From Nitrososphaerales archaeon (GTDB taxonomy: Archaea > Thermoproteota > Nitrososphaeria > Nitrososphaerales > Gagatemarchaeaceae), in contig JBEKFK010000001.1 in NCBI GenBank assembly GCA_050013375.1, forward strand, positions 5,051 through 69,050: DNA of 64,000 nt, in the 5' to 3' direction. Under the pieces are notes generated by a model. The model saw nothing but the letters and a program-made list of their open reading frames with translations, did no database searches and was not told where the DNA came from. Positions 5,840-60,324 of the stretch are shown piece by piece (the first letter of the stretch is position 1; every line of letters begins with the position of its first letter). The translations under genes were made by a program, and so were the position numbers.

Positions 5840-6253
5840 CTACTTCTTCCTGGTCAGGGCGATTACCGGGATCTTCCTCTTGGTCTTGCGCTCATACTCG
5901 CCGAACGTAGGGAACGCGGCGACCTGGCGCTTGTAGAGGGCGTCCCGTTCGGGTCCCGTGACCTCCACGGCGTGCAGGTCTAGGGTCTCGTCCCCGATCT
6001 CGGCCCTGACGTCGGGGCTGGCCTTGAGGTTGAGGAACCAGTGCGGATGGAAATCATGACCCGCCTTCGACCCGAAGACGATGTACCTGTCCCCGTCCTT
6101 GAGGTACATCACCGGGGTGACGTGGGCCTTCCCGCTCTTCTTCCCGACGGTGTGCAGCAGCAGCAGCGGCGCTCCTGCGAAGTAGCCGCCGACCTTCCCC
6201 TTGTTCTTGCGGAATTCCGCGATCGTATGTGCGTTAAAGTCACTGGCACTCAT
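5840..6253 (-). CDS. deazaflavin (F420)-dependent nitroreductase family protein (DDN/DUF385-like)
   Basis: FNAHTIAEFRKNKGKVGGYFAG..LLLLHTVGKKSGKAHVTPVMY..GSKAG...HPHWFLNL and a C-terminal R.IPVIALTR. Start taken at the internal ATG (MSASDFN). Confidence 0.8.
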   Translation of the reverse strand: MSASDFNAHTIAEFRKNKGKVGGYFAGAPLLLLHTVGKKSGKAHVTPVMYLKDGDRYIVFGSKAGHDFHPHWFLNLKASPDVRAEIGDETLDLHAVEVTGPERDALYKRQVAAFPTFGEYERKTKRKIPVIALTRKK

Positions 6254-12290: not shown

Positions 12291-12686
12291 TCAGCCAGGC
12301 ACCCAGTTTTCTGGGTCGTACTCCCTGTAGTCCAGCAGGAGCTCCTCGCCTCTCTTGATCGGGCCGACAGCGAGCAACCTGGCCGTTCTCGTCTCGATGT
12401 CGATCGAGAATCTGACGTTGGGTGGCTGGCCGTGGTCCAAGAAGTTGGACCAGTACTCGCCGCTCCCCTCGTCCGCCTCATCCCAGAACAACCGCCGTCC
12501 ATCCGGCGTCCTCCCGATGATGAGGGCCCACCTCTTCCAGGGAGGGGACTTTGGGGTGGTCGTGACGAGCATCTCCGGCATCAGGCAGAGAAGCTCCCCG
12601 CGTGCGAGGTCCCTGAGGGCGAACACGCCTCGGCCGTGAGGACATTTCCTGACCTCGAGGAGACCCTCTACCCTTTCGCCAGCCAA
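12291..12686 (-). CDS. minimal SET-domain protein (putative protein lysine methyltransferase)
   Basis: 131 aa. GRGVFALRDLARGELL (N-SET GxG), YWSNFLDHGQPPNV (NHSCxPN-like) and IKRGEELLLDYREY (GEELxxDY). Confidence 0.8.
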   Translation of the reverse strand: MAGERVEGLLEVRKCPHGRGVFALRDLARGELLCLMPEMLVTTTPKSPPWKRWALIIGRTPDGRRLFWDEADEGSGEYWSNFLDHGQPPNVRFSIDIETRTARLLAVGPIKRGEELLLDYREYDPENWVPG

Positions 12687-21076: not shown

Positions 21077-22423
21077 ATGAGTCGCGCATCGAAGGTCTCG
21101 CTTGAGGGGAAGTCCAGTGAGGAGATTCTCAGGAAGGACGCAAAGTACATCGCGCACGGCGGAGGACCCACCCCGATAGTCTTCGTGGAGGCGAAGGGCT
21201 CCATTGTCACCGATGCGAACGGCAAGGAGTACATAGACTGCGTCTCCATGGGCATGGGCACCTCCGGGGTCGGGCACAACCACCCGCGCGTAGTCGCTGC
21301 CATAAGAGAGCAGGCTGGTAAGATAATCCACACCCACCTGTCCACCGTGAACATACCCTCGGTGGAGCTGGGGGAGAAGCTCGCGAGAATCACCCCCAAG
21401 GGGCTAAACAAGTTCCACTTTGTGAACAGCGGGACCGACGCCAATGAGACGGCGATCAGGGCAGCGATGACCTACACCAAGAAGAAGGAGGTGATCTCAC
21501 TCGAACTCGCCTACCATGGCTCGACAATAGCCCTGTCCAGCCTCGGGATGTCGTACTCCCGACACGCCTACCCAACCATCCAGGGGTTCAGGCAACTCCC
21601 TCCGCCCTACTGCTACCGCTGTCCGATCGGGCTGACCTATCCGAAGTGCGGGGTCGCCTGCGCGAACCTCCTAGACGACGCGATACGGTACGCCACGTCC
21701 CACGACGTGGCGGCGTTCATCCTGGAACCGATCATAGGGGCAGGCGGACACATCGTCCCTCCACTCAACGATTACGCGAAGATAGTCAGGGAGACCTGTG
21801 ACAAACACGGGATACTGATCATCGCCGACGAGATACAGACAGGGCTCGGCAGGACGGGGACGATGTGGGCCTCTGACTACATCGGTCTGAAGCCGGACAT
21901 CATGACCCTCGGCAAGGGTCTCGGCGGCGGGATGCCGATGGGCGCGGCCGTCTTCTCCGAGGAGGTGGGGACCCGGCTACAGAAGGACCCGTGGGCCCAC
22001 GGATACACCCACAGCGAGAGCCCGATGTCCTGCGCAGCCGCCGGGGCGGTCGTCGACATCGTCGTCGACGAGAAGCTGCCGGAGAGGAGCGCGAAGCTCG
22101 GGGCGATTGCCACCAAGATATTCAAGCGGTGGCAGGGGAGGTACGAGGCCATCGGGGACGTGAGGGGTCCCGGCCTCTTCATCGGCGTCGAACTGGTGAA
22201 GAACAGGACCACCAAGGAGAGGGCCACCGAGGAGGCCACGAAGATAGCCGCGGAGGCCTTGGCGATGGGCGGGATATTCAGCACCTCGCACGGAGCTTCG
22301 AAGGAGCCCGGAGGTAATGTGATCAAGTTCAAGCCCCCGATGACGATCGACGAGGCCACGATGAAGCGGGGCATCGGCATACTAGAGGATGCGTTCGATT
22401 CCGTCCTGGGAAAGGCGAGCTAA
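21077..22423 (+). CDS. class III (omega) PLP-dependent aminotransferase
   Basis: NSGTDANE, ADEIQTGLGRTG and TLGKGLGGGMP (Schiff-base Lys). Confidence 0.9.
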   Translation: MSRASKVSLEGKSSEEILRKDAKYIAHGGGPTPIVFVEAKGSIVTDANGKEYIDCVSMGMGTSGVGHNHPRVVAAIREQAGKIIHTHLSTVNIPSVELGEKLARITPKGLNKFHFVNSGTDANETAIRAAMTYTKKKEVISLELAYHGSTIALSSLGMSYSRHAYPTIQGFRQLPPPYCYRCPIGLTYPKCGVACANLLDDAIRYATSHDVAAFILEPIIGAGGHIVPPLNDYAKIVRETCDKHGILIIADEIQTGLGRTGTMWASDYIGLKPDIMTLGKGLGGGMPMGAAVFSEEVGTRLQKDPWAHGYTHSESPMSCAAAGAVVDIVVDEKLPERSAKLGAIATKIFKRWQGRYEAIGDVRGPGLFIGVELVKNRTTKERATEEATKIAAEALAMGGIFSTSHGASKEPGGNVIKFKPPMTIDEATMKRGIGILEDAFDSVLGKAS

Positions 22424-22509
22424 TCCTCGGTCTGGGTTTCTGGCCGCCCGGCTCTCTGACCAGACATCTCAGCAAAGAATAAGAGCCGCGCCATGGGTCA
22501 AGGCGCTTG

Positions 22510-23487
22510 ATGGGTCGCGCCGAGGGGATGGTCGACGATCTTGTTTCCCTGCCTGTAACCCTCCTGCCCATTGTGCACATCAGACCGAGCAAGTTCAAAC
22601 TGCGCCGTGAGCTTGGGAGGCTTGACGAGCTCGAGGAGTCCATCTCGAGGGTCGGCCTGCTCCAGCCGATAATCGTAAGGAAGAAGGGCAGTCAGAGCTA
22701 CGAGGTCGTCTCGGGACACAGGAGGCTCGCCTCGTGCCGGGCGCTCGGCATGAAGAGTATCAGGGCCATCATTACTGAGATGGGCGACAAGACCTCCTTC
22801 GAGGTTCAGCTCACCGAGAACATCCAGCGGGAGTCGTTCGCCCCCCTCGAGGAAGCGAGGGCCTTCTACTCCTACGTGGGGTCGGGGAGGAAGGGCCGCG
22901 TCGCCTACGGCACCGTCTCGGAGCTGGCGCGGAGGATTGGGAAGAGCCAGGAGTACATCTCCAACAGGATGAGGCTGCTCAGGCTCCCCGTCAGGCTGAT
23001 GGAGAAGATGTTCGTCGCCGACGGGTTCACCGTGAGCCACGCCGAGGAGATATCGCTGCTCGCGTCGAACCCGGAACTCGTCGAGAAGCTTTGCGACATG
23101 GTCGTCGCGAAGAAGATCACGGTGCGCGAGCTCGAGAGGGCAATCCCGCTGATCAAATCCGGGACGGAGGTCGAGCCTGCGATCGAGCTGGCGAGAAACG
23201 AGGTCAAGCTGAGGCCGAAGCGCGAGGCGCAGCTCGAGGTGGAGGATTCGGTCGGGATTATCCTGAGGAGGACGCGAAAGCTCCTGGAATCGACGCTTTG
23301 CTACGTGGACAGCGCGGGCGTCGAGATGGAGATGGACAGGGACCTCCACGAAATCTGGATCAGGGAGGTCCGCATGAAGATCCACGACGCGGTCGATGGC
23401 GTTGTCTTCGCGGAGAGGGTGAGGCGGGGCAAGAGAGCCGAGCACCGCAGAAGGCCAACCGAAGAGCCTTTCATCTGGTCCGGATAG
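22510..23487 (+). CDS. parB: ParB/Spo0J-family protein (ParB N-terminal domain + HTH)
   Basis: LLQPIIVRKKGSQSYEVVSGHRRLASCRALG (GxRR box), QLTENIQRESFAPLEEARAF, and the HTH TVSELARRIGKSQEYISNRMRLLRLP. ATG at 22510 (TTG at 22507 is also possible). Confidence 0.85.
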   Translation: MGRAEGMVDDLVSLPVTLLPIVHIRPSKFKLRRELGRLDELEESISRVGLLQPIIVRKKGSQSYEVVSGHRRLASCRALGMKSIRAIITEMGDKTSFEVQLTENIQRESFAPLEEARAFYSYVGSGRKGRVAYGTVSELARRIGKSQEYISNRMRLLRLPVRLMEKMFVADGFTVSHAEEISLLASNPELVEKLCDMVVAKKITVRELERAIPLIKSGTEVEPAIELARNEVKLRPKREAQLEVEDSVGIILRRTRKLLESTLCYVDSAGVEMEMDRDLHEIWIREVRMKIHDAVDGVVFAERVRRGKRAEHRRRPTEEPFIWSG

Positions 23488-23521
23488 GAATCACAGTAGG
23501 CGGCGCTGGCCGACCGAAGCT

Positions 23522-23535
23522 ATTCCACGTGGAAT
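23522..23535. promoter_or_regulatory. parS-like perfect palindrome ATTCCACGTGGAAT
   Basis: 14-bp perfect inverted repeat 35 nt after the ParB stop. The 16-mer 23521-23536 matches the bacterial parS consensus TGTTNCACGTGAAACA at 12/16 positions, including the CACGTG core. Confidence 0.45.
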
Positions 23536-23706
23536 CGTCTAAACACAAGAAGCCAGGTCGCGGCGTACAGGGAAGGACTCGACATGACGGATGAAGTACG
23601 GGACTGGCGGTCGCTTCAGAATTCACCAACGGGTCGCGTATTCGTCAATATAATTTGAATCTCGGGGGTTGAAAGCTTATTATTTACTGGGACATGCTAA
23701 ATCCTC

Positions 23707-25302
23707 TTGGCTGATCAGCCAAAGAAGCTGTTCGTTCGTGAGGCCACCGGCCTCGTGAGGGAGCTCGGATTCGTCGACCATTTCTTCATCTCATCCGGAA
23801 TCATCCTGGTCTTGGGAGGCTTCGTCATCACCGCGCTGTTCACGCCACTCCTGTTCCCGGGTGCCTACCTCCCGGCGGTCTTCCTGCTCGGCAGCATCCC
23901 CGCCTGGGCGATGGCCTACATCTATGGCAGGCTCTCGGGCGGGATTTCGAGAAGCGGAGGCGACTACGTCTGGTCCACTAGAATCCTCGGGCCACTCTTC
24001 GGTTCAATCCAGTTCATCTTCCTCCTCCTCGCCACAGTCACGTTCGTCGGGGGCGGAGCCACGCAGATCTTCTTCTACGGTCTTTCACAGTTCGCATTCG
24101 GAGTCGGCGTCGACACTCACAGCATGTCGTTGCTAACCCTTGGAGGCCAGCTAAGCAGCGTCAGCGTAGGCGGTCCTGGCTCGTTCCTGGTGCTTGCTCT
24201 CGTGACGATTGGCGCCTTGGTTACTATCCGGGCGTTCGGATGGATCTTCAAGATTACATACGTGTTCTACTACTTCCTGACAATCGTCTTCATCATCGTG
24301 TGTCTCACGATAGTCCCGTCGAGCGTATCGGCGATGTTCAACAGTGCGATGAGCACTGCAGGGGTGAACCTGACCTACAATAGCGTCATCGCTTCCACGG
24401 CCAGCTCGGTACCTTCGCAGTTCAGCCTCAACAACACCCTTCTCGCCGCATTGCCTCTGGGCTTCACGACCTTCATCGGGTTCAACTACGGCACCTATCT
24501 CGCGGGGGAGACCAAGAACGCAAAGTCGTCGCTTTCGAAGGCTCTCTATCTGGCTATGGGAGTCACGACCGTCCTTCTAGTAGCAATGAGCTACTTGATT
24601 TACAATACCTTCAATTCGACCTTCCTGAGTTCGATCGCATACTACTACGGCTCGCATCCGGGAGTCCTCCCGGTCCTGCCCACGGCGACCATGCTCGCCG
24701 GCTTTACGAGCCCCTACGTCGCGGGACTGCTCGGTCTGGGAATCGCGATATCGTGGGCGGTGCAGATAATGGGCTTCCTCGTGACCTTCTCCCGCATCAT
24801 CTTCGCGGCATCATTCGACCGGCTACTCCCGTCAGCCTTCTCCAAGGTGAGCGACAGGTTCCACGCACCCTACTGGGCAGTAGTCCTGGTCTCCTTCCTC
24901 TCAGGGCTGTACCTCTTCTTCTTCTGGTACTATGGCATCATTGCCGCGCAGCTCAACACCTCCTACATTCTGCCAATCGGGTTTGCAATGCCGATGATAG
25001 CCACGCTCCTGTTCCCAATCGTGAAGAAGGACCTCTACGTCCGCATCTTCGGGTCGATGGCTGGTGCAAAGACTCTCATGTTCGCCTCCGCCGTCGGTGC
25101 GGGCGCCTTCATCATCTATGCCATCGCGATATCCGACCCGATTGTCAGCGGTGTCTACATCGGTGCATCCTTGGATCTGGCCATCGAAGTGGCTATCGCG
25201 GGCGTTCTCATCGGCGCAGCCATCTACGCCTTGGGGCGCTACCACGCTCGATCCATCGGTCTGGACCTGAACAACATCTACGCAGAGATCCCGCCGGAGT
25301 GA
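23707..25302 (+). CDS. APC-superfamily amino acid/polyamine permease
   Basis: 531 aa with a TTG start, about 12-14 TM helices and the APC-like N-terminal motif (GSIPAWAMAYIYGRLSG). Confidence 0.8.
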   Translation: MADQPKKLFVREATGLVRELGFVDHFFISSGIILVLGGFVITALFTPLLFPGAYLPAVFLLGSIPAWAMAYIYGRLSGGISRSGGDYVWSTRILGPLFGSIQFIFLLLATVTFVGGGATQIFFYGLSQFAFGVGVDTHSMSLLTLGGQLSSVSVGGPGSFLVLALVTIGALVTIRAFGWIFKITYVFYYFLTIVFIIVCLTIVPSSVSAMFNSAMSTAGVNLTYNSVIASTASSVPSQFSLNNTLLAALPLGFTTFIGFNYGTYLAGETKNAKSSLSKALYLAMGVTTVLLVAMSYLIYNTFNSTFLSSIAYYYGSHPGVLPVLPTATMLAGFTSPYVAGLLGLGIAISWAVQIMGFLVTFSRIIFAASFDRLLPSAFSKVSDRFHAPYWAVVLVSFLSGLYLFFFWYYGIIAAQLNTSYILPIGFAMPMIATLLFPIVKKDLYVRIFGSMAGAKTLMFASAVGAGAFIIYAIAISDPIVSGVYIGASLDLAIEVAIAGVLIGAAIYALGRYHARSIGLDLNNIYAEIPPE

Positions 25303-29266: not shown

Positions 29267-30235
29267 CTAGGACGACCGGTCAGAGTCAGACATCTCCTTC
29301 ACCACCGCCGACCAGGCATCCCTGACATTCGCTGGGTCGTACCCTCCTCCCCCCATGGCAAGGAGTCTCCCCCCGCAGACCCTGTGGGCCAATCGGTGCA
29401 GGCTCCGCGCCGCGTGCGCATGCGCCGCGGACGTGTACTTCAGGTGGGTGAGAGGGTCTCCTCGCAACCCGTCGGCCCCGCACTGCAGAAGAATCAGACC
29501 GGGCCTGAATGAGCCAACGAACTCCTCGACCCTGTTGAACGCCTCGACGAACTCGACGTCTCCTGCGCCCGGGGGGAGAGGGATGTTCAGCTTCGTGCCC
29601 GCTGCTTCCCCCGCCCCAGTCTCTCCCGCGCTCCCCGTCCCGGGATACAGCGAGCGTCCATCCTCGTGGATGTCTCCGATGATCACACGGGGGTCCGATT
29701 CGAACCCGTAGAACACGCCGTCCCCGTGGTGGGCGTCGATGTCGACATAGGCCACCCTATCGATGCCGGGGAGCGAGAGAGCCCTCCGGATTGCTATGGC
29801 GGCATCGTTGAAGACGCAGAACCCCCCGGCCTTCCCCTCTCTCGCGTGGTGCAGCCCGCCGACCGGGTTGAAGAAGTGGTCCAGCCTGCCCTCGAGGACC
29901 AGTCCCAGGCCGTCGAGGGTGCTGCCCACAGGAAACACGGAGGCCTCGTAGACGCCCCTGAATGAGGGGGTGTCAGCGTAGTCCAGGAACCCCTCGCCGA
30001 GTCGGGACGACTCCCTCACGAGGCTTACGTACTCCGGCGTGTGGAAGAGCAGCAGGTCTTCCGTGGTGGCGGGGACCGGCCTGATGACATCGAACCCCTC
30101 GGCAGAAGGGAGCCAATCGGCGAAGAGCTCGATCCTGGACTTGTTCATTGGATGGGGGTATGGGAACGAATAGAGCTCCGATTCCTTCCCGAAGGAGACT
30201 CCCAGCCTGCATCCGCCGGATGCGTCCCTGCCCAC
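29267..30235 (-). CDS. histone deacetylase-family enzyme (AcuC/acetylpolyamine amidohydrolase-like)
   Basis: GGLHHAREGKAGGFCVFNDAAIAI, DIDAHHGDG, GGGGY. A GTG at 30235 gives a start 5 nt after the upstream stop. The track ORF extends to 30295 and would overlap its neighbour. Confidence 0.85.
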   Translation of the reverse strand: MGRDASGGCRLGVSFGKESELYSFPYPHPMNKSRIELFADWLPSAEGFDVIRPVPATTEDLLLFHTPEYVSLVRESSRLGEGFLDYADTPSFRGVYEASVFPVGSTLDGLGLVLEGRLDHFFNPVGGLHHAREGKAGGFCVFNDAAIAIRRALSLPGIDRVAYVDIDAHHGDGVFYGFESDPRVIIGDIHEDGRSLYPGTGSAGETGAGEAAGTKLNIPLPPGAGDVEFVEAFNRVEEFVGSFRPGLILLQCGADGLRGDPLTHLKYTSAAHAHAARSLHRLAHRVCGGRLLAMGGGGYDPANVRDAWSAVVKEMSDSDRSS

Positions 30236-30239
30236 TTCA

Positions 30240-30581
30240 TCAGTTCTCGAGATCTTCCGCCGCCGCACGAGGGATCGAGCCCATGCTCTCTTCATCGGAG
30301 CGAAGTTCCATCCAAGTGTGACCGCAGGCCTTGCACCTGTACGTGTACTGGAAGTCCTTGACGTCTATTATGACCGGCTGCATCCCGATGACGGTCGGAC
30401 TGCCCTGGGGAGAGTATCCGCCGAGAACAGACGCGCTCGGAGGTCCCCCCTTAAGGTCGACGGTCGGGGCCTTCTCAAGATTCTCGTCCTCACCCACGAG
30501 CTTCTTGCTCACGAGCCGTAGCTCGAACCTGCGACCACAGGCGGGGCAGTGCCTGAACATGGTCCTGATCTCGGAAGCCAC
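30240..30581 (-). CDS. zinc-ribbon hypothetical protein
   Basis: 113 aa with CPACG near the N-terminus and CKACGH near the C-terminus, split by a ~70-aa insert. A TATA-like CTTATAATTAC sits on the minus strand ~30 nt upstream. Confidence 0.6.
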   Translation of the reverse strand: MASEIRTMFRHCPACGRRFELRLVSKKLVGEDENLEKAPTVDLKGGPPSASVLGGYSPQGSPTVIGMQPVIIDVKDFQYTYRCKACGHTWMELRSDEESMGSIPRAAAEDLEN

Positions 30582-38519: not shown

Positions 38520-40130
38520 TTGAAGATCTCTGCATTCAAGGTCGGCAATTATCGAAGTCTACGGGAAGTATCACTCGACAAGCTTGGCAACCTCAACCTC
38601 CTGATAGGGAGGAACAGCGGGGGGAAATCGAACATCCTGGAAGCCATGAGCCTATTCTTCTCCGAATTCGAGCCGGTCAAGGGAACGACCACCGGGCTGA
38701 ACGAGTACTTCTGGTACAAGGGGTCGACTAGGCCGATCACGTTCGAGGTCACCCTCGAACTGGAGGGAGACAAGCCCGCGGGGCTATCACCGGAGGACCA
38801 GGCCTTCCTCAACGCCGTCTTCGGGAAGGCCCTGCCACCGACCCTGAAGATTACACGCTCACTGTTGAACGTGCAGGGCGCGTGGAAGACCGACGGCATG
38901 GTCTGGGGAACCACAACCTTGGTCAAGGATGACGCGCTTCAGCTCTCGCCCAATCTCAAGATAGACTCCCCGACCCTGGACAGAATCCTCCGCATCATCT
39001 CGACGCTTGTCAAGAACAAGTACAGGCTGGTGGGTGCCGGCAGGGACGCGAAGGGCGGGGACAGGTTCAGGACCACCCTCCTGGACGAGAATACCCAGAG
39101 CCGCCTGTGGACGCTCCAGCAGAGCACCACGGCCCAGGACGAGGAAAGGTACAGCGAGTTCGAGGAGGCGTTCTCCGACCTCACATCATTCCGGCTGGAC
39201 CCGGCACAGGCCCGGCTCATGGTGAAGAAGGACAGCAAGAGGTTCCCCCTCGGCCTAGAGGGCGGCGGAACCCAGGGTACCGCCAACCTCCTCTTCACCG
39301 CCCTGGTGGAGAGCGACGACACCACGGTCTTGGGCATCGAGGAGCCGGAGAGCCACGGGCACCCCGGGCTGCAAAGGAGACTCTGCCGTGAGATAGAGAA
39401 GATCAGCCTCGACAGGCAGGTCTTCATCACGACGCACTCTCCAGTCCTGGTTGACGCCGCCCGGGGCGGCACGACCTGGCTCGTCGACTACTCGGACGGG
39501 CAGACGCGGGTGGTTCGGGCCGACGAGTTCGAAGGAGTGCTCCGCGACCTCGGCGCGAGGCCGGGTGACGTGCTCTTCAGCGACAGCGTCGTCTTCGTCG
39601 AACGAAGTTCAGAGAAGATAGTCCTGGAGGCTTTTGCCCGGAAACTGGGGATCGACCTGGCCCACGTCTGGATAGTCCCGGTCAGGGGGATGGGGAACTC
39701 ATCGGTCACCCTGGAGGCGGCCGTCCTCTCCGCGAACAAGGTTGTCCCGACGTTCGTGATCCTGGGCTCTGAAGCGACCGCGCAGGCCGCGCAGCTGGTC
39801 GACGGCAAGTCCATCACCAAGCAGCAGGTCCACGTCTGGAAGTCGGGCTCGATTGATGCCTACTACCCCGTGGACACGCTGAGGGATGCGTTTCAGGCCA
39901 TAAGCACGCGCTACTCGTTCAACCTCAACGTGAACAAGTACGTCCAGGAGGTTCAGGACGGGAAGGTCCACCCGAACGAGATCGACATCGGCGACAAGGT
40001 CAAGCAGCTCGAGTCGTCCTGGGAGACGGCGTTAGCGGTGGAGGTCGCGAAGGGGCTGGAGAAGAGCCAGTCAGAGCCGTCGACCGAGATCAGGGACACA
40101 CTGCTCGCGGCCACATCACCGCCGGCCTGA
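38520..40130 (+). CDS. fused ABC-type ATPase / Toprim-like protein (OLD-family / DUF4435-type)
   Basis: The TTG start gives MKISAFKVGNYRSL. Walker A GRNSGGKSN, signature-like LEGGGTQG, Walker B VLGIEEPESHGHP, FITTHSP. The C-terminal VVFVERSSEKIVLEAF...IVPVRGMGN...FVILGSEAT...GSIDAYYP has a Toprim-like order. Confidence 0.8.
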   Translation: MKISAFKVGNYRSLREVSLDKLGNLNLLIGRNSGGKSNILEAMSLFFSEFEPVKGTTTGLNEYFWYKGSTRPITFEVTLELEGDKPAGLSPEDQAFLNAVFGKALPPTLKITRSLLNVQGAWKTDGMVWGTTTLVKDDALQLSPNLKIDSPTLDRILRIISTLVKNKYRLVGAGRDAKGGDRFRTTLLDENTQSRLWTLQQSTTAQDEERYSEFEEAFSDLTSFRLDPAQARLMVKKDSKRFPLGLEGGGTQGTANLLFTALVESDDTTVLGIEEPESHGHPGLQRRLCREIEKISLDRQVFITTHSPVLVDAARGGTTWLVDYSDGQTRVVRADEFEGVLRDLGARPGDVLFSDSVVFVERSSEKIVLEAFARKLGIDLAHVWIVPVRGMGNSSVTLEAAVLSANKVVPTFVILGSEATAQAAQLVDGKSITKQQVHVWKSGSIDAYYPVDTLRDAFQAISTRYSFNLNVNKYVQEVQDGKVHPNEIDIGDKVKQLESSWETALAVEVAKGLEKSQSEPSTEIRDTLLAATSPPA

Positions 40131-41316: not shown

Positions 41317-43155
41317 TTGGCTAGCGAACAACCAGGCATCAGCCCCCCTCTGAAGCCGGCCTTCATCGGGGCGCCGGCCAAGGCAGGAGCGCGACCGAAC
41401 CTCCCGATCTTCTCCATCATCGATTCCATCGACTTCACGGACCACTTCGTGATCGTCGGCGACGTCGGGACCGGGAAGAGCACGGTGACCCCCATCCACG
41501 AGTTCGAGGTCTACAAGAGGGCCAGACAGATCGTGATCCGCGAGCCATCGAGGGCCGCGTGCAACGCCCTCTACTACTCGCTTCAGGCCCTCCATCCCGA
41601 GGTGAAGGAGGAGCTGGCGGTGATCACCAAGGACACCAAGATCAACATCGACGGGCGGATCAAGATCGTGACCGACGGCGTCCTGCTCAGGATGCTGGCC
41701 GAGGACTCGATCTTCGAATCCTCGATCTACTTCGACGAGAGCCATCAGATGTCCTCCCAGCTTGAGCTCTGCATGTCCCTCGCCAAGAGGGAGGAGGCCA
41801 GGGCGCGGAACCTATTCAGGGTCATGAGCGCCACTATCGACCCAAAGGAGTTCCTCTCGTTCCTGGGAATCTCCAAGCTCTACACGCTGAGCGGCCGCAG
41901 GTATCCTGTCAGGCTGGAGGTGGAGCTCGCGGAGGACTTCGAGGAGATGCAGCGAATCCTGTCGCTCTACCTCTTCCAGCAGCCCCCAAACGAGTCCTGG
42001 CTGGTCTTCCTGCCCACACGGCGCCTCGTGGAGAAGTACGCCGGGACCTACAGGGGGACCTTCATCCACGGCGGTCTGGTGGGCTCTGAGATCAACAAAA
42101 TCCAGGAGAGGGCGGAGCGCGACAAGAACCTGAAGATATTCGCGACGAACGTCATTGCCTCCTCGGTGAACATCTACGTCGACAACGTGCTAATCCTCAA
42201 CGAGGTGATCGACGGCAAGGACAAGCTGGGGGAGAAGTCCCTCCACTACAAGAAGGTAGACAACAACACGCTGCTGCAGATGATAGGGAGGATAGGCCGC
42301 TTCAAGCCCGGCCGCGCCGTGATCATCTCCGACACTCAGATCCCCAAGAAGATCGATCCCGTTCCCGTGCGCAAGGCGCTCGAGACCGAGACGCCGTTCG
42401 ACCTGGTCCTCCTGATGTCGAAGTACGGCCTCAAGCTCGGGGAGCTCGAGTTCATGTCGAGGGTGGACCCCCGCGAGGTCGCCTTCGCCGAGAACTGGCT
42501 GATCGAGATCGGGGCGATAGACCGTCTCACGCGCAAGATCACCTGGAAGGGACTTCTGATGAGCGAGATCCCCTACGACCCAGACTTCGCGCACATGATA
42601 TCCAGCGCTATCATCTCGGACGACTACGAAATGGCCAGGTACCTTCTGGCAAGCGGCTCGTTCGGCGACTCGCTCAACCACGCCTACAAGACCGAGCTTG
42701 AGGGGGTCGCCCGCGAGTTCCTGTACGGCTACGACCGGTCCAACGAGCTCAACATCAAGGCGAACCTCCTCAAGGGCTACTCGAACAACGCCGACGGCGC
42801 GTTCACAGCGAGGCTCGTAGCGAACGGCATCTTCCCGGGTTTCGTGGACGAGGCCTGGAAGAACTACCAGGCCGCGAGGGACGCCCTGAACGACCTTCTC
42901 CTATCCTCGGAGGAGGAGCCCATACCGGAGAAGGTGGTCTCGGACCTCTACGTCTTCAAGCTCAGGCCCTACCTGGAGGACTGCCTCTCGTTCGAGAAGT
43001 TCGGCCTGCACGAGAAGAACGAGCACAACCTTCGTGACATGATCATCGAAGGGCCGTTCTTCGCCAGGTCGCTGACGATAAACTACAGGCGCATCCTCTT
43101 CGACATCATCGCCATGAACCCCCCGAAGAAGCACCGCCACGGAAGAAGGCGCTGA
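41317..43155 (+). CDS. SF2 DExH-box (DEAH/RHA-like) helicase with HA2-like region
   Basis: Motif I GDVGTGKST, II FDESH, III MSAT, FLPT, V ATNVIASSVNI, VI QMIGRIGR. A downstream winged-helix/ratchet-like segment follows (PFDLVLLMSKYGLKLGELEFMSRVDPREVAFAENWLIEIGAID), then a basic tail KKHRHGRRR. Confidence 0.8.
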   Translation: MASEQPGISPPLKPAFIGAPAKAGARPNLPIFSIIDSIDFTDHFVIVGDVGTGKSTVTPIHEFEVYKRARQIVIREPSRAACNALYYSLQALHPEVKEELAVITKDTKINIDGRIKIVTDGVLLRMLAEDSIFESSIYFDESHQMSSQLELCMSLAKREEARARNLFRVMSATIDPKEFLSFLGISKLYTLSGRRYPVRLEVELAEDFEEMQRILSLYLFQQPPNESWLVFLPTRRLVEKYAGTYRGTFIHGGLVGSEINKIQERAERDKNLKIFATNVIASSVNIYVDNVLILNEVIDGKDKLGEKSLHYKKVDNNTLLQMIGRIGRFKPGRAVIISDTQIPKKIDPVPVRKALETETPFDLVLLMSKYGLKLGELEFMSRVDPREVAFAENWLIEIGAIDRLTRKITWKGLLMSEIPYDPDFAHMISSAIISDDYEMARYLLASGSFGDSLNHAYKTELEGVAREFLYGYDRSNELNIKANLLKGYSNNADGAFTARLVANGIFPGFVDEAWKNYQAARDALNDLLLSSEEEPIPEKVVSDLYVFKLRPYLEDCLSFEKFGLHEKNEHNLRDMIIEGPFFARSLTINYRRILFDIIAMNPPKKHRHGRRR

Positions 43156-53414: not shown

Positions 53415-54035
53415 ATGAACCAGATGCGCGGACCCCAGAGAGAAAACGTGCACGACCTGGATATCGGCCCCAGGGACATGGAGGTCCTGCGCTTCATAGG
53501 CGAAGAGGCACTGCTCGGGTTCACCTTCGAGGGGCTGAAGAGGAGGCTCGGCGCCCACTCGGAGACGCTCTCGAGGATTCTCGACAGGCTCGAGGAACAG
53601 AGGATACTCGAGAAGACGGCGCAGGGATACCAGGTGACGGAGAGGGGGAGGGAAGTAACCAGCCTGCGCCAGCTCGCGGCCTCGGAACCGAGGCTCACGC
53701 TGCTCAGGACGCTTCTCCCGCACGTTGACAATCCCCGCGACGCGGTCTCCAACCTGAGGGGCAGGTGGTTCGGGCCGCTCCGGTGGCTCGGGTACTCCGA
53801 GGACGAGAAGGGAACCATCATGAAGTGGATAACCGAGGACGGGAGCATCCAGGTCGACGCGATCTTCTCGAGGGGAGAGCTCACCATAGAAGGCCGCATC
53901 AAGGAAGGGAAGGATCTCACGGACGCGATAAAGGCATCCCACCAGCTCATGGGCTACATATCGAAGGTCTATCCGTCCTCACCGAACGAGCGGGTCGCCT
54001 ACTACGCCGCCGGCCCCTTCCAGCTCCAGAACTAG
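53415..54035 (+). CDS. winged-helix (MarR/ArsR-like) protein with uncharacterised C-terminal domain
   Basis: FTFEGLKRRLGAHSETLSRILDRLEEQRILEKTAQGYQVTERG. The stop lies 1 nt before the next gene. Confidence 0.65.
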   Translation: MNQMRGPQRENVHDLDIGPRDMEVLRFIGEEALLGFTFEGLKRRLGAHSETLSRILDRLEEQRILEKTAQGYQVTERGREVTSLRQLAASEPRLTLLRTLLPHVDNPRDAVSNLRGRWFGPLRWLGYSEDEKGTIMKWITEDGSIQVDAIFSRGELTIEGRIKEGKDLTDAIKASHQLMGYISKVYPSSPNERVAYYAAGPFQLQN

Positions 54036-60189: not shown

Positions 60190-60234
60190 CCGGCCAGCCT
60201 TCGGTGATTAAAACTCAACCGATGTCGGATGAGG

Positions 60235-60324
60235 CGGGCCCGGCCGGATTTGAACCGGCGGCTTCCAGCTGTCTCCACAAGAGCATAGAAGGCTGGCACT
60301 CTATCCGTGCTGAGCTACGGGCCC
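60235..60324 (-). tRNA. tRNA-Arg (anticodon UCU) with 15-nt canonical-position intron (60271..60285)
   Basis: Folds by hand into a cloverleaf: acceptor GGGCCCG/CGGGCCC, D arm GCUC/GAGU, anticodon stem CCAGC/GCUGG, T arm GCCGG-UUCAAAU-CCGGC. The loop is CU-UCU-A, then the intron UGCUCUUGUGGAGAC, then A. The intron forms a BHB: a 4-bp helix CUUC/GGAG flanked by 3-nt bulges UA|U and AC|A. No encoded CCA. Confidence 0.9.

Follow-up and report, generated by a model that had tools for sequence, protein, structure and literature searches.

What does a ParB-family gene do on an archaeal chromosome when no ParA partner is encoded nearby, and does the parS-like palindrome just past its stop codon belong to it? 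To our knowledge, the organisation and segregation of archaeal chromosomes are largely unresolved beyond Sulfolobales (SegAB) and a few euryarchaea, and we know of no site-specific loader of archaeal Smc-ScpAB. The 64-kb stretch of DNA analysed here (the window), from a soil archaeon of the Nitrososphaerales, carries such a gene and palindrome, which an initial annotation described as a ParB-parS module, perhaps horizontally acquired or repurposed. Following up this locus, we find that the palindrome is conserved beside the same gene in related archaea, and we regard it as reasonably probable that the gene product is a clamp of the ParB/Spo0J/Noc family, chromosomally encoded and independent of ParA, with TATTCCAYRTGGAATA most likely as its nucleation site.

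A predicted clamp-type ParB among metabolic genes

The gene (22510..23487, + strand), assigned to the parB family by its Pfam, TIGR00180 and PDB matches, encodes 325 aa, opening with an ATG at 22510 (an in-frame TTG lies at 22507) and closing with a TAG stop that ends at 23487. Two domains account for its N-terminal two thirds: the NTP-binding ParB N-terminal domain or 'CTPase fold' at aa 18-106 (22561..22827, +; ParB_N, PF02195, E 7e-19; pLDDT ~90 in the AF2 model and recognised by Foldseek), and the DNA-binding HTH domain at aa 111-212 (22840..23145, +; HTH_ParB, PF17762, E 4e-13), which includes a GKSxxxxxN recognition helix and can be aligned residue by residue to Spo0J and Noc. All of the motifs quoted in the initial annotation are present, namely the arginine box VSGHRRLASCRALG at aa 67-80, TENIQRE at 102-108, PLEEA at 112-116 and the HTH segment TVSELARRIGKSQEYISNRMRLLRLP at 135-160. 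The whole protein scores 116.4 bits against TIGR00180, above the curated cutoff of 58.45, its top PDB sequence matches are Spo0J, Noc and ParB (E 1e-19 to 5e-29, the last for Spo0J 6sdk), and the leading Foldseek matches of the AF2 model are Noc 7nfu and ParB 6sdk/6t1f, together with the KorB clamp 8qa9 (E 7e-9). Sulfiredoxin (Srx), SerK and SbnI match the protein weakly and over ~80 N-terminal residues, and the presence of the HTH_ParB domain rules out an HTH-less ParB-like enzyme (sulfiredoxin, SerK, SbnI or ParB-like nuclease). Judged by these matches, the product is a clamp-type ParB of the ParB/Spo0J/Noc family, as had been proposed.

The archaeal context of the gene is confirmed: the protein is 100% identical to that of a Nitrososphaerales archaeon MAG, its closest homologs are all thaumarchaeal, and an ortholog contig carries the genes for ribosomal L7Ae and S28e and for aIF-2 within 10 kb of parB. 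As reported before, its neighbours are a class-III aminotransferase (21077-22423) and an APC permease (23707-25302), and no ParA partner accompanies it. A Pfam scan of the 63 window ORFs returned no ParA/MinD/SegA-type ATPase and no ParA/MinD/CbiA-type match, the deviant Walker A motif KGGxGK[ST] occurs in no frame of the window and in none of 10 ortholog loci, and precomputed Pfam lists contain no ParA-type family within 10 kb of the orthologs. The gene is therefore an orphan among metabolic genes. Orc1/Cdc6, SMC and ScpAB genes are likewise missing from the window and from the 10 kb around parB in 10 ortholog loci.

A conserved nucleotide pocket and a divergent C-terminal domain

We read residue conservation from an alignment of 25 family members. 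Box II (G69-H70-R71-R72, 22714..22725, +) has the GxRR form with His in place of the canonical Glu; G69, R71 and R72 are invariant, while position 70 is H, N, S, Y, T or A and never E. Box III (E103-N104-I105-Q106-R107, 22816..22830, +) has the ENxQR form, with E103, N104 and Q106 invariant and R107 nearly so, and R32 of box I is invariant as well. The box III residues are the counterparts of Caulobacter E135/N136/R139, and altogether the equivalents of Caulobacter R60, R103, R104, E135, N136 and R139 are conserved in the archaeal ParB family. Residues associated with hydrolysis are not kept across the 25 members: the box II Glu is replaced, and different residues occur where box I would have its Gln (K30). 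In Caulobacter ParB, CTP binding requires R103/R104, and an E102A mutant shows no hydrolysis and is 'clamp-locked' (PMC8367383). Lacking the box II Glu, and in many cases the box I Gln as well, the family probably hydrolyses nucleotide slowly and forms long-lived clamps. As to which nucleotide is bound, a 2025 survey of the ParB-CTPase fold (PMC12704722) holds that sequence cannot predict nucleotide specificity.

The C-terminal part of the protein resembles no known ParB domain: aa 213-325 have no Pfam match at E<=1, and the bacterial-type C-terminal dimerisation domain PF23552 was not detected. AF2 instead models a long helical hairpin at aa 247-305 (23248..23424, +), a putative dimerisation module with helices at 247-273 and 277-305 (pLDDT 86-92) and with W283, V287, R288 and H292 invariant among the 25 members. 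A search of 1.84 billion representatives found only 7 relatives of this domain at E<=1e-3, all apparently from the same family, which suggests a lineage-specific hairpin, unlike the bacterial ParB C-terminal domain, with a presumptive role in dimerisation. With the catalytic box II Glu absent and the C-terminal domain unlike the bacterial one, clamp cycling may differ from that of bacterial ParB. At the N-terminus, the ParA-stimulating motif [LFI]G[KR]G[LFI] is absent in 25/25 family members, and the terminal residues (MGRAEGMVDD / MQVGSVDLQ) form no basic amphipathic helix. The 'complete bacterial-type architecture' of the initial annotation was thus overstated; ParB_N and the HTH stand, but the C-terminal domain, the ParA-binding motif and the box II Glu do not.

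A palindrome conserved beside parB in related archaea

The perfect 14-bp palindrome noted previously, ATTCCACGTGGAAT (23522-23535), lies 34 nt past the parB stop. The surrounding 16-bp TATTCCACGTGGAATC (23521..23536, no strand), a putative ParB nucleation site on account of its sequence and its conservation at ortholog loci, does match the bacterial parS consensus TGTTNCACGTGAAACA at 12/16 positions, or at 11/16 when N is taken as T. On the evidence of the window alone, palindrome and parS similarity are both within chance for 64 kb: where 6.05 perfect 14-bp palindromes would be expected, the window has 7, and a similarity to parS of >=11/16 is reached by 9 of its 16-mers. The 14-mer itself is present in a single copy even with <=3 mismatches allowed, and the canonical bacterial parS TGTTNCACGTGNAACA does not occur in the window with <=2. 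The palindrome owes its significance solely to comparative data.

The 16-bp site TATTCCAYRTGGAATA was detected, with 0-2 mismatches, in 11 of 12 ortholog-holding loci: the window, L005, L007, L009, L011, L013 (two copies), L014, L015, L198, L199 and L201, whose orthologs have 43-72% identity to the window protein. Second copies of four of these (L006, L008, L010 and L012, of L005, L007, L009 and L011, respectively) were left out of the count. The sole ortholog locus without a site, L200, lies on a contig too short to reach the syntenic position. Over 251 kb, composition predicts 0.23 sites and 12 were observed, with a clean separation between real sites (<=2 mismatches) and noise (>=3). Eleven of the 12 copies are intergenic, in ~7 distinct gene contexts, and they sit at gene 3' ends or between convergent genes rather than in promoters. 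The site follows the parB stop by 28-34 nt in the window, L201 and L013, where a 15-nt block is invariant in a spacer that has otherwise diverged. Several ortholog loci are syntenic, so that not all of these occurrences are independent.

Each of the site-bearing loci has 1-2 sites, all within ~10 kb of parB. No site was found away from the gene in 117 kb of same-lineage DNA, where 6.7 would be expected at the near-parB density (P ~0.001); this background consists of the rest of the window, the second contig of the L014 genome, and three loci of the closest relatives, which may or may not carry this ParB themselves. A search of ~45 loci with more distant ParBs gave no site either. The window palindrome is most likely one copy of a conserved TATTCCAYRTGGAATA site at which ParB would nucleate, in the manner of parS; its conservation beside the same gene in related archaea makes it probably the chromosomal loading site of ParB, and the concern that it might be unique and not conserved falls away.

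Among the loci compared, TGTTNCACGTGNAACA with <=2 mismatches is matched solely at the TATT[CT]CACGTG[GA]AATA sites of L013, L015 and L053. A metagenome-wide scan for TATTCCAYRTGGAATA returned at least 120 loci and is uninformative on genome-wide distribution; among the matches listed, 119 loci were unrelated, TATA-centred variants included, and the only ParB-bearing one (L100) is identical in sequence to L015. The 16-mer clusters of L127, L186 and L119 were set aside as a different system: they consist of 20-bp AATATTCCACGTGGAATATT repeats, their contigs look bacterial, and no ParB homolog is encoded there. The same 16-mer also occurs in unrelated bacteria, by chance or as the site of another factor.

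Specificity residues and sister clades

Alignment to Spo0J, Noc and Caulobacter ParB locates the specificity residues of the recognition helix (G144-K145-S146-Q147...R153...R158, 22939..22983, +), which we interpreted with the published ParB/Noc code (PMC7383237). Q147 aligns with Caulobacter position 173, which is R in ParB and Q in Noc, R153 and R158 with the permissive K/R positions 179 and 184, and S176 (nt 23035-23037) with position 201. For Q-K-K-G variants, the published preference is for a hybrid site that has adenine at both position 1 and position 6 (PMC7383237). The archaeal site has both A1 and A6 and matches the hybrid TATTTCACGTGAAATA at 14/16; it begins with TA, and the protein has Gln at the position with which Noc reads adenine 1. 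The residues Q147, R153, R158 and S176 would accordingly suit the A1/A6 of the site, a concordance partly built in by selection, since all homologous loci were retrieved through the peptide IGKSQEY.

Related archaeal ParB clades carry TAT...ATA palindromes inside parB itself, where synonymous codons co-vary such that the intragenic palindrome is kept; in one sister-clade locus, L053, a second, extragenic copy is found. No palindrome within 10 kb is shared by the ammonia-oxidiser-type ParB clade (L019, L020, L022, L026 and L029).

Relation to known systems

Bacterial chromosomal ParB/Spo0J-parS and the archaeal system share the ParB_N plus HTH_ParB architecture with a TIGR00180 score above cutoff, the GxRR and ENxQR pocket residues, a 16-bp palindrome with a CACGTG core adjoining parB (12/16 here), and few sites clustered by the gene. 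The location of the B. subtilis site within spo0J is paralleled by the intragenic palindromes of the sister archaeal clades. Differences from bacterial ParB include the archaeal host, the lack of parA and of the LG[KR]GL ParA-binding motif, the replaced box II Glu, Gln at the R173 position and Glu at the R204 equivalent, the unrelated C-terminal hairpin and the metabolic neighbours. Bacterial parS is typically origin-proximal; the archaeal sites cluster near parB, and neither orc1/cdc6 nor a skew shift was seen in the window or the ortholog loci. Streptococcus pneumoniae is also ParA-less, and its ParB-parS recruits SMC.

Noc, the nucleoid occlusion protein of Firmicutes and a paralogue of ParB, is close in several respects, being the top Foldseek match (7nfu) and, through TIGR04285, the best-scoring NCBIfam model (144 bits), yet the score is far under the Noc cutoff of 315. 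Like the archaeal ParB, Noc is an orphan without ParA and has Gln at position 173 and basic residues at 179/184, and its site NBS, TATTTCCCGGGAAATA, also starts with TA. However, Noc has Arg at position 201 where the archaeal protein has Ser, the NBS core is CCCGGG rather than CACGTG, the amphipathic membrane-targeting helix at the Noc N-terminus is absent here, and many NBS are dispersed over the chromosome, in contrast to the 1-2 gene-proximal archaeal sites (one in the 64-kb window). KorB of the KorB-OB system of RK2, a CTP-dependent clamp and repressor, has the same N-terminal and HTH fold (8qa9, E 7e-9); it too binds a palindrome as a clamp and serves a purpose other than segregation, but it is only ~24% identical, plasmid-borne and partnered by KorA, with operators in promoters and an SH3-like C-terminal domain.

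Within archaea, SegAB of Sulfolobales and AspA/ParB/ParA of pNOB8 are DNA-partition proteins too. Structurally, the N-domain of pNOB8 ParB is distantly related (5k5d, E 4e-5), and identity to pNOB8 ParB is only ~15%. The window, by contrast, has no SegA/ParA ATPase, AspA adaptor or SegB-type ribbon-helix-helix protein, and its site is a parS-like palindrome unlike SegB or AspA sites. The gene fits exactly the orphan canonical-type archaeal ParBs described in the available text of PMC12704722 (TIGR00180-positive, with an HTH, no ParA and no ParA-binding motif), and is therefore less unusual than the initial annotation implied; as far as that text goes, it gives these proteins no cognate DNA site and does not analyse them by lineage, and the conserved site appears to be previously undescribed. 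Gene and site together probably constitute a ParA-independent ParB/parS-like module on archaeal chromosomes, as their sequences suggest.

Alternative explanations

ParB might instead bind the palindrome as a local transcription regulator of the KorB/VirB/BisD kind, acting on metabolic or transport genes or together with a divergent Lrp/AsnC gene, and have no chromosome-organising role. Such a role would fit the presence of only 1-2 sites, all amid metabolic genes, as well as the structural kinship with KorB (8qa9, E 7e-9) and the doubts about a role of archaeal ParB in segregation voiced in PMC12704722. We nonetheless consider it unlikely, given that the sites lie at gene 3' ends and between convergent genes, not at promoters, and that their flanking genes differ between lineages, which argues against a common regulon. 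The divergent Lrp/AsnC gene is conserved beside parB in seven loci (L005, L007, L009, L011, L198, L199 and L200), but the AsnC-parB promoter region holds neither a full site nor a half-site, and the window keeps its site though the AsnC neighbour is missing. The window site is also ~130-150 nt upstream of the TATA-like region of the APC permease gene. Upstream of parB itself we read a possible archaeal TATA-like promoter element, AAAGAATAAGAG (22474..22485, +), ~25-35 nt before the ATG, and in orthologs a conserved block, GTATAGCTAAGTATAAGA, occupies the corresponding position; an autoregulatory operator was rejected, as the parB promoter regions contain just this block and no site or half-site.

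That the palindrome serves a factor other than ParB, whether as the site of a different transcription factor, as an ORB-like element for Orc1/Cdc6, or as a terminator or roadblock, and lies near parB through shared ancestry is, in our estimate, quite improbable. The binding of ParB to the site is a prediction, several loci are syntenic and their occurrences partly non-independent, and unrelated bacterial contigs bear 16-mer arrays with no ParB nearby; furthermore, the TTCCAC/GTGGAA dyad of the site presumably bears a loose resemblance to archaeal ORB cores. Yet the site is never more than 10 kb from parB across ~7 gene contexts despite changing synteny, is not found elsewhere in 117 kb of same-lineage DNA, is parS/NBS-like and fits a Gln-173-type recognition helix, and has related palindromes embedded in parB of sister clades. 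A replication-origin (ORB/Orc1) reading is opposed by the single site, the uniform GC, the lack of an AT-rich unwinding element and of an orc1/cdc6 gene, the absence of a skew inflection in the window and the absence of an Orc1/Cdc6-type P-loop in the window and 10 ortholog loci. A terminator or RNA hairpin was rejected as well, for shuffled sequence folds at least as well as the downstream RNA (z = +1.45), and no T-tract or terminator-like site is found at the palindrome.

Least probable, and by a wide measure implausible, is a third reading, in which gene and site serve the partition of an integrated plasmid, virus or ICE, or were transferred from bacteria recently, and have no host chromosomal function. 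Thaumarchaeal integrative-conjugative elements do carry ParB-like genes (PMC6563490), and bacterial orphan ParBs are often tied to mobile elements. An OLD/GajA-like defence ATPase is encoded 15 kb from parB, a proximity that could be counted in favour of a mobile element, while ParB itself has no defence-family membership. But integrase, conjugation, TFIIB and replication genes are absent from the window and the ortholog loci, GC is uniform across the window (0.60-0.65), IMG/VR holds no relatives of this ParB, the nearest homologs are all thaumarchaeal, and the local order with housekeeping and metabolic genes is kept across many Nitrososphaerales genomes ranging in GC from 0.42 to 0.63. Viral or mobile origin is ruled against by the missing IMG/VR relatives and by the place of ParB outside defence families. 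We thus find no evidence of recent horizontal transfer or of a mobile element, and the suggestion of horizontal acquisition, taken as a recent event, is not borne out.

A model for the archaeal ParB and its site

Under the favoured reading of a chromosomal, ParA-independent clamp, we propose the following scheme of DNA binding, nucleotide use, clamp behaviour and cellular role. A ParB dimer, joined by the C-terminal hairpin, would bind the site via its HTH, with Gln147 reading the position-1 adenine of each half-site as in Noc and Ser176 tolerating adenine at position 6 as in ParB. An NTP, probably CTP, bound at the GxRR/ENxQR pocket would then close the N-terminal gate, and the closed clamp would depart from the site and slide onto flanking DNA, where slow hydrolysis would probably leave it long-lived. 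Given 1-2 sites, all ~10 kb or less from parB, and the lack of a ParA interface, the probable role of the complex is to mark or organise a single chromosomal locus, at which Smc-ScpAB or another partner could be loaded or anchored; it probably does not drive ParA-powered segregation. Both smc and scpA were present in 14/14 thaumarchaeal species surveyed (PMC7055376).

In earlier work, a 'ParB homolog' of Thermococcus turned out to be a serine kinase, and PMC12704722 deems archaeal canonical ParBs unlikely segregation factors and names no DNA targets for them. Our additions are the conservation of the site, its concentration near parB and its agreement with the specificity residues, and this gene-proximal site makes archaeal orphan ParBs a directly testable system, with a 16-bp duplex (e.g. 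TATTCCACGTGGAATA), a soluble 325-aa protein and mutational predictions in hand; Q147R, for instance, is predicted to shift the position-1 preference from A to G. With no box II Glu and a different putative dimerisation domain, the family offers a natural experiment on the CTP switch, and the sister clades with coding-embedded palindromes may be a second case of protein-site co-diversification after ParB/Noc. More tentatively, and with considerable doubt, we suggest that Nitrososphaeria and some other SMC-bearing archaea (e.g. Methanomassiliicoccales) may run a bacterial-style but ParA-independent ParB-parS in which a slow-hydrolysing clamp at one or two TATTCCAYRTGGAATA sites is the loader or anchor of Smc-ScpAB or a centromere-like mark, and that several paralogue-site pairs would have diversified within archaea as ParB/parS and Noc/NBS did in Firmicutes. 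If this is true, ParB would be the so-far-missing site-specific loader or anchor of archaeal Smc-ScpAB, or a centromere-like mark on these chromosomes.

A ParB-family protein with a distinct C-terminal domain

The parB reading frame runs from 22510 (ATG) to 23487 (TAG) on the + strand (325 aa, with an in-frame TTG at 22507), flanked, as the initial annotation held, by genes for a class-III aminotransferase and an APC-family permease, and its product carries all of the protein motifs quoted there. The protein matches Pfam ParB_N (aa 18-106, 7e-19) and HTH_ParB (aa 111-212, 4e-13), and scores 116 bits against NCBIfam TIGR00180 (ParB/RepB/Spo0J partition protein; cutoff 58); its highest NCBIfam score, 144 bits, is to the Noc model, yet falls far under the cutoff of 315. 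Among solved structures, sequence similarity is strongest to B. subtilis Spo0J (6sdk, 5e-29), Noc and the Myxococcus, Thermus, Helicobacter and Caulobacter ParBs, with SerK and sulfiredoxin types giving marginal matches. The parB product thus belongs by sequence to the true ParB-family clamp proteins rather than the sulfiredoxin type, and clamp behaviour is predicted for it. We found no membership in a defence or phage family.

The earlier description of a complete bacterial-type architecture holds for the two Pfam domains and fails for the C-terminal one, as aa 213-325 have no Pfam match. An AlphaFold2 model built from a 25-sequence family alignment (mean pLDDT 83) superposes in Foldseek on Noc, ParB and KorB, but only across its N-terminal and HTH domains, and its C-terminal part is modelled as an extended hairpin of two helices (aa 247-273 and 277-305, pLDDT 86-92) in which W283, V287, R288 and H292 are invariant across the family. 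Searching 1.84 billion representative proteins by phmmer with aa 213-325 yielded only 7 relatives at E<=1e-3, apparently all from the same family; the domain is therefore lineage-specific and distinct from the bacterial ParB dimerisation domain.

In the nucleotide pocket, R32 of box I, G69, R71 and R72 of box II, and E103, N104 and Q106 of box III are invariant in the family, R107 of box III is nearly so, and the Gln position of box I varies. The conserved positions correspond to Caulobacter R60, R103, R104, E135, N136 and R139, where alanine mutants lose CTP binding (R60, R103, R104, N136, R139) or hydrolysis (E135) (PMC8367383). The box II Glu is absent throughout the family, with H, N, S, Y, T or A at position 70; the Caulobacter E102A mutant shows CTP binding and DNA entrapment without hydrolysis, a 'clamp-locked' phenotype (PMC8367383). 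NTP-dependent clamp closure would then be kept in the archaeal protein, with slow turnover. According to a 2025 ParB survey (PMC12704722), sequence does not predict nucleotide specificity.

The absence of a ParA partner was borne out: none of the 63 window ORFs encodes a ParA/MinD/SegA-type ATPase, Orc1/Cdc6, SMC or ScpAB, a deviant Walker A motif is missing from all frames of the window and 10 ortholog loci, and 25/25 family members lack the ParA-stimulating motif [LFI]G[KR]G[LFI].

A conserved 16-bp site accompanies parB

A perfect 14-bp palindrome, ATTCCACGTGGAAT (23522-23535), lies 34 nt 3' of the parB stop, and the surrounding 16-mer TATTCCACGTGGAATC (23521-23536) agrees with the bacterial parS consensus at 12/16 positions if N counts as matching; the initial annotation had already reported the palindrome and the 12/16 match. 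Judged on its own, the palindrome does not stand out statistically: perfect 14-bp palindromes number 7 in the window, with 6.05 expected, and nine 16-mers there are at least 11/16 identical to parS. The 14-mer ATTCCACGTGGAAT is unique within the window, even allowing 3 mismatches.

Conservation in relatives was surveyed in 12 ortholog-bearing loci (L006, L008, L010 and L012 duplicate L005, L007, L009 and L011), with mismatches counted against TATTCCAYRTGGAATA, and a site was kept at 11/12. The same TATTCCACGTGGAATC (1 mismatch) occurs in the window and 28 nt after the parB stop in L201 (72% protein identity), and L013 (66%) carries TATTCCACGTGGAATA (0 mismatches) 29 nt after the stop plus a second copy, GATTCCACGTGGAATA (1 mismatch), 1.6 kb upstream of parB. 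Further upstream sites are TATTCCACATGGAATG in L014 (1 mismatch, 0.7 kb) and TATTCCATGTGGAATA in L009 (0 mismatches, 1.7 kb). Downstream of parB lie TATTCCACGTGGAATA in L015 (2.3 kb) and L199 (4.3 kb), TATTCCACATGGAATA in L005 and TATTCCATGTGGAATA in L007 (both 6.5 kb), all with 0 mismatches, TATTCCATGTGGAATC in L198 (1 mismatch, 6.5 kb) and GATTCCACGTGGAATC in L011 (2 mismatches, 9.5 kb). The 3' end of one aminotransferase gene adjoins the site in L199, L005, L007 and L198, and L200, whose contig stops short of the syntenic position, has none. Base composition predicts 0.23 sites in the 251 kb of ortholog loci, where we found 12; intermediate matches are absent, the next-best 16-mers carrying 3-4 mismatches. 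Short intergenic gaps hold 11/12 sites, in about seven distinct gene contexts, and aligning the post-stop regions of the window, L201 and L013 reveals one invariant 15-nt block, TATTCCACGTGGAAT, in an otherwise diverged spacer.

The site follows parB rather than the lineage, in a test that covers parB loci and 117 kb of same-lineage DNA. Site density within 10 kb of parB is 1 per 17 kb, whereas the 117 kb away from parB contains 0 sites against 6.7 expected at that density (Poisson P ~0.001). The site is absent from the remaining 43 kb of the window, from L035 (a second contig of L014's MAG) and, even at 3 mismatches, from three 21-kb loci of the closest relatives, which have a DRG GTPase 86-92% identical to the window's, are syntenic with window 35-60 kb and may come from genomes without a window-type ParB. 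It is also absent from ~45 loci with more distant ParBs.

Protein-DNA concordance and in-gene palindromes of sister clades

Four residues set ParB/Noc specificity: R173 (Caulobacter numbering) contacts guanine-1 of parS and Q173 reads adenine-1 of NBS, the change from G201 to R201 allows reading of cytosine-6, K or R at 179/184 is permissive, and Q-K-K-G variants prefer a hybrid site mixing parS and NBS features (PMC7383237). In HMMER and MAFFT alignments these positions are Q147, R153, R158 and S176 of the window ParB, all invariant or nearly so in the family, although retrieval of the homologous loci by the peptide IGKSQEY partly selects for the Gln. The archaeal site has A at positions 1 and 6, and matches the hybrid TATTTCACGTGAAATA at 14/16 positions versus 12/16 each for parS and NBS. 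R204, a conserved DNA contact, is Glu179 in the window protein.

Other archaeal ParB clades (Nitrososphaeria, Conexivisphaera, Methanoplasma) carry perfect or near-perfect 16-bp TAT...ATA palindromes within the parB coding sequence, ~415-430 nt into the parB match (L016-L018, L021, L023, L025, L027, L028, L030, L031, L033, L034, L036-L041, L043, L048, L053). These palindromes (TATGCGGCGCCGCATA, TATGCGCCGGCGCATA, TATTCGACGTCGAATA, TATTCGCCGGCGAATA and again the hybrid 16-mer) encode [IM]-R-R-R-I or I-S-R-E-I directly past the recognition helix. Their synonymous third positions co-vary (G/C, C/G, A/T), and the symmetry is therefore kept; an identical 16-mer recurs across genomes of GC 0.40 to 0.65 while flanking codons are altered, using genome-rare codons (ATA when GC-rich, CGN when AT-rich). 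The Methanoplasma locus (L053) has a second copy outside parB, 4.2 kb upstream, at 6148, and in B. subtilis a parS likewise lies within spo0J, its parB gene. Within 10 kb of parB, the Nitrosopumilus/Nitrososphaera-type 'SVSQA[IL]' clade (L019, L020, L022, L026, L029) shares no palindrome. The sister-clade palindromes support the protein-site principle, and the window ParB family no longer has the in-gene site, relying on extragenic putative sites instead.

Distribution and neighbourhood

An identical protein occurs in a Nitrososphaerales archaeon MAG, and ~50 homologs (40-90% identity) are thaumarchaeal wherever named, bar one partial match labelled Rhabdochlamydiaceae (P0022). More distant are ParBs of roughly 290 aa from Nitrososphaeraceae and other lineages; a genome scan added relatives in Nitrosopumilus, Nitrososphaera, Nitrosotalea, Conexivisphaera, Bathyarchaeota and Methanoplasma, and among bacterial proteins those of Azospirillum come closest (about 31-33% identical). 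The archaeal setting is secure, as originally proposed, because on one ortholog contig the genes for ribosomal L7Ae, S28e and aIF-2 lie no further than 10 kb from parB. The suggested horizontal acquisition, by contrast, finds no support as a recent transfer: GC is uniform across the window (0.60-0.65), the window has no mobile-element genes, and IMG/VR holds no relatives. Two ParB paralogues of different clades can coexist in one thaumarchaeal genome (L014 and L035 in MAG JARCRS01; L021 and L046 on contig CAWCYI010000006.1), recalling ParB/Noc paralogy in Firmicutes.

An Lrp/AsnC gene is divergent from parB in most ortholog loci, with metabolic genes following parB; in the window the aminotransferase takes its place upstream. 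The shared intergenic region (L005 9875-10000, L007 9869-10000, L009 9873-10000; also L198, L199 and L200) contains a conserved block, GTATAGCTAAGTATAAGA, ~30 nt 5' of parB, probably a promoter or operator.

Elsewhere in the window, an OLD-family ATPase (AAA_15/AAA_21 and TOPRIM; 38520-40130, +) with GajA, AriA and Old matches in PADLOC may be a defence gene; an epimerase gene and a DEAD/Helicase_C protein without a PADLOC match (41317-43155) follow. ARAGORN calls a tRNA-Met (53464-53539, +) that overlaps the start of a MarR/HVO_A0261_N-like ORF (53415-54035), has no Rfam tRNA at gathering threshold and may be a false positive, and agrees with Rfam on a 92-nt tRNA-Arg(TCT) (60233-60324, -), long enough for an intron. 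A small SET-domain protein (131 aa, 12291-12686, -) and a histone-deacetylase-family protein (29267-30295, -) are potential chromatin- or protein-modifying enzymes.

Alternative readings and putative role

A terminator or RNA hairpin at the palindrome is unsupported. A promoter operator fits poorly with sites at gene 3' ends and with parB promoter regions that share a conserved TATA-like block only and no half-sites, and a replication-origin element would come without an orc1/cdc6 gene, AT-rich island or skew change. A metagenome-wide scan for the site pattern was uninformative, with chance matches among the matches listed. Three bacterial-looking metagenome contigs (L127 5620-5960, L186 1224-1811, L119 18-358) hold 2-3 copies of a 20-bp palindrome, AATATTCCACGTGGAATATT, within 300-600 bp and no ParB homolog nearby; these are unrelated operator-like arrays sharing the same 16-mer.

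The palindrome is probably the cognate site of the window ParB, and gene and putative site probably make up a ParB/parS-like module that lacks ParA and is conserved by vertical descent in a Nitrososphaerales clade; other archaea have related putative modules. The module differs from the bacterial paradigm in its catalytic Glu, dimerisation domain, ParA interface, R204 contact and genomic neighbourhood. We found no description of a thaumarchaeal parS in literature on ParB in Thaumarchaeota, Nitrososphaera and Nitrosopumilus, and the available portions of the 2025 survey, which records canonical-type orphan ParBs in archaea and doubts that they act in segregation, mention no archaeal DNA site (PMC12704722); elsewhere thaumarchaeal Spo0J/ParB appears as mere annotation, or on ICEs beside TFIIB (PMC6563490). 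Reviews of archaeal SMC note that bacterial SMC loading depends on ParB-parS and identify the Thermococcus homolog of ParB as a serine kinase, and smc and scpA are encoded in 14/14 surveyed Thaumarchaeota (PMC7055376). The main rival reading makes the window ParB a local regulator; we prefer a putative role in chromosome organisation or Smc loading. The module is of interest both to archaeal chromosome biology and to research on the CTP switch.
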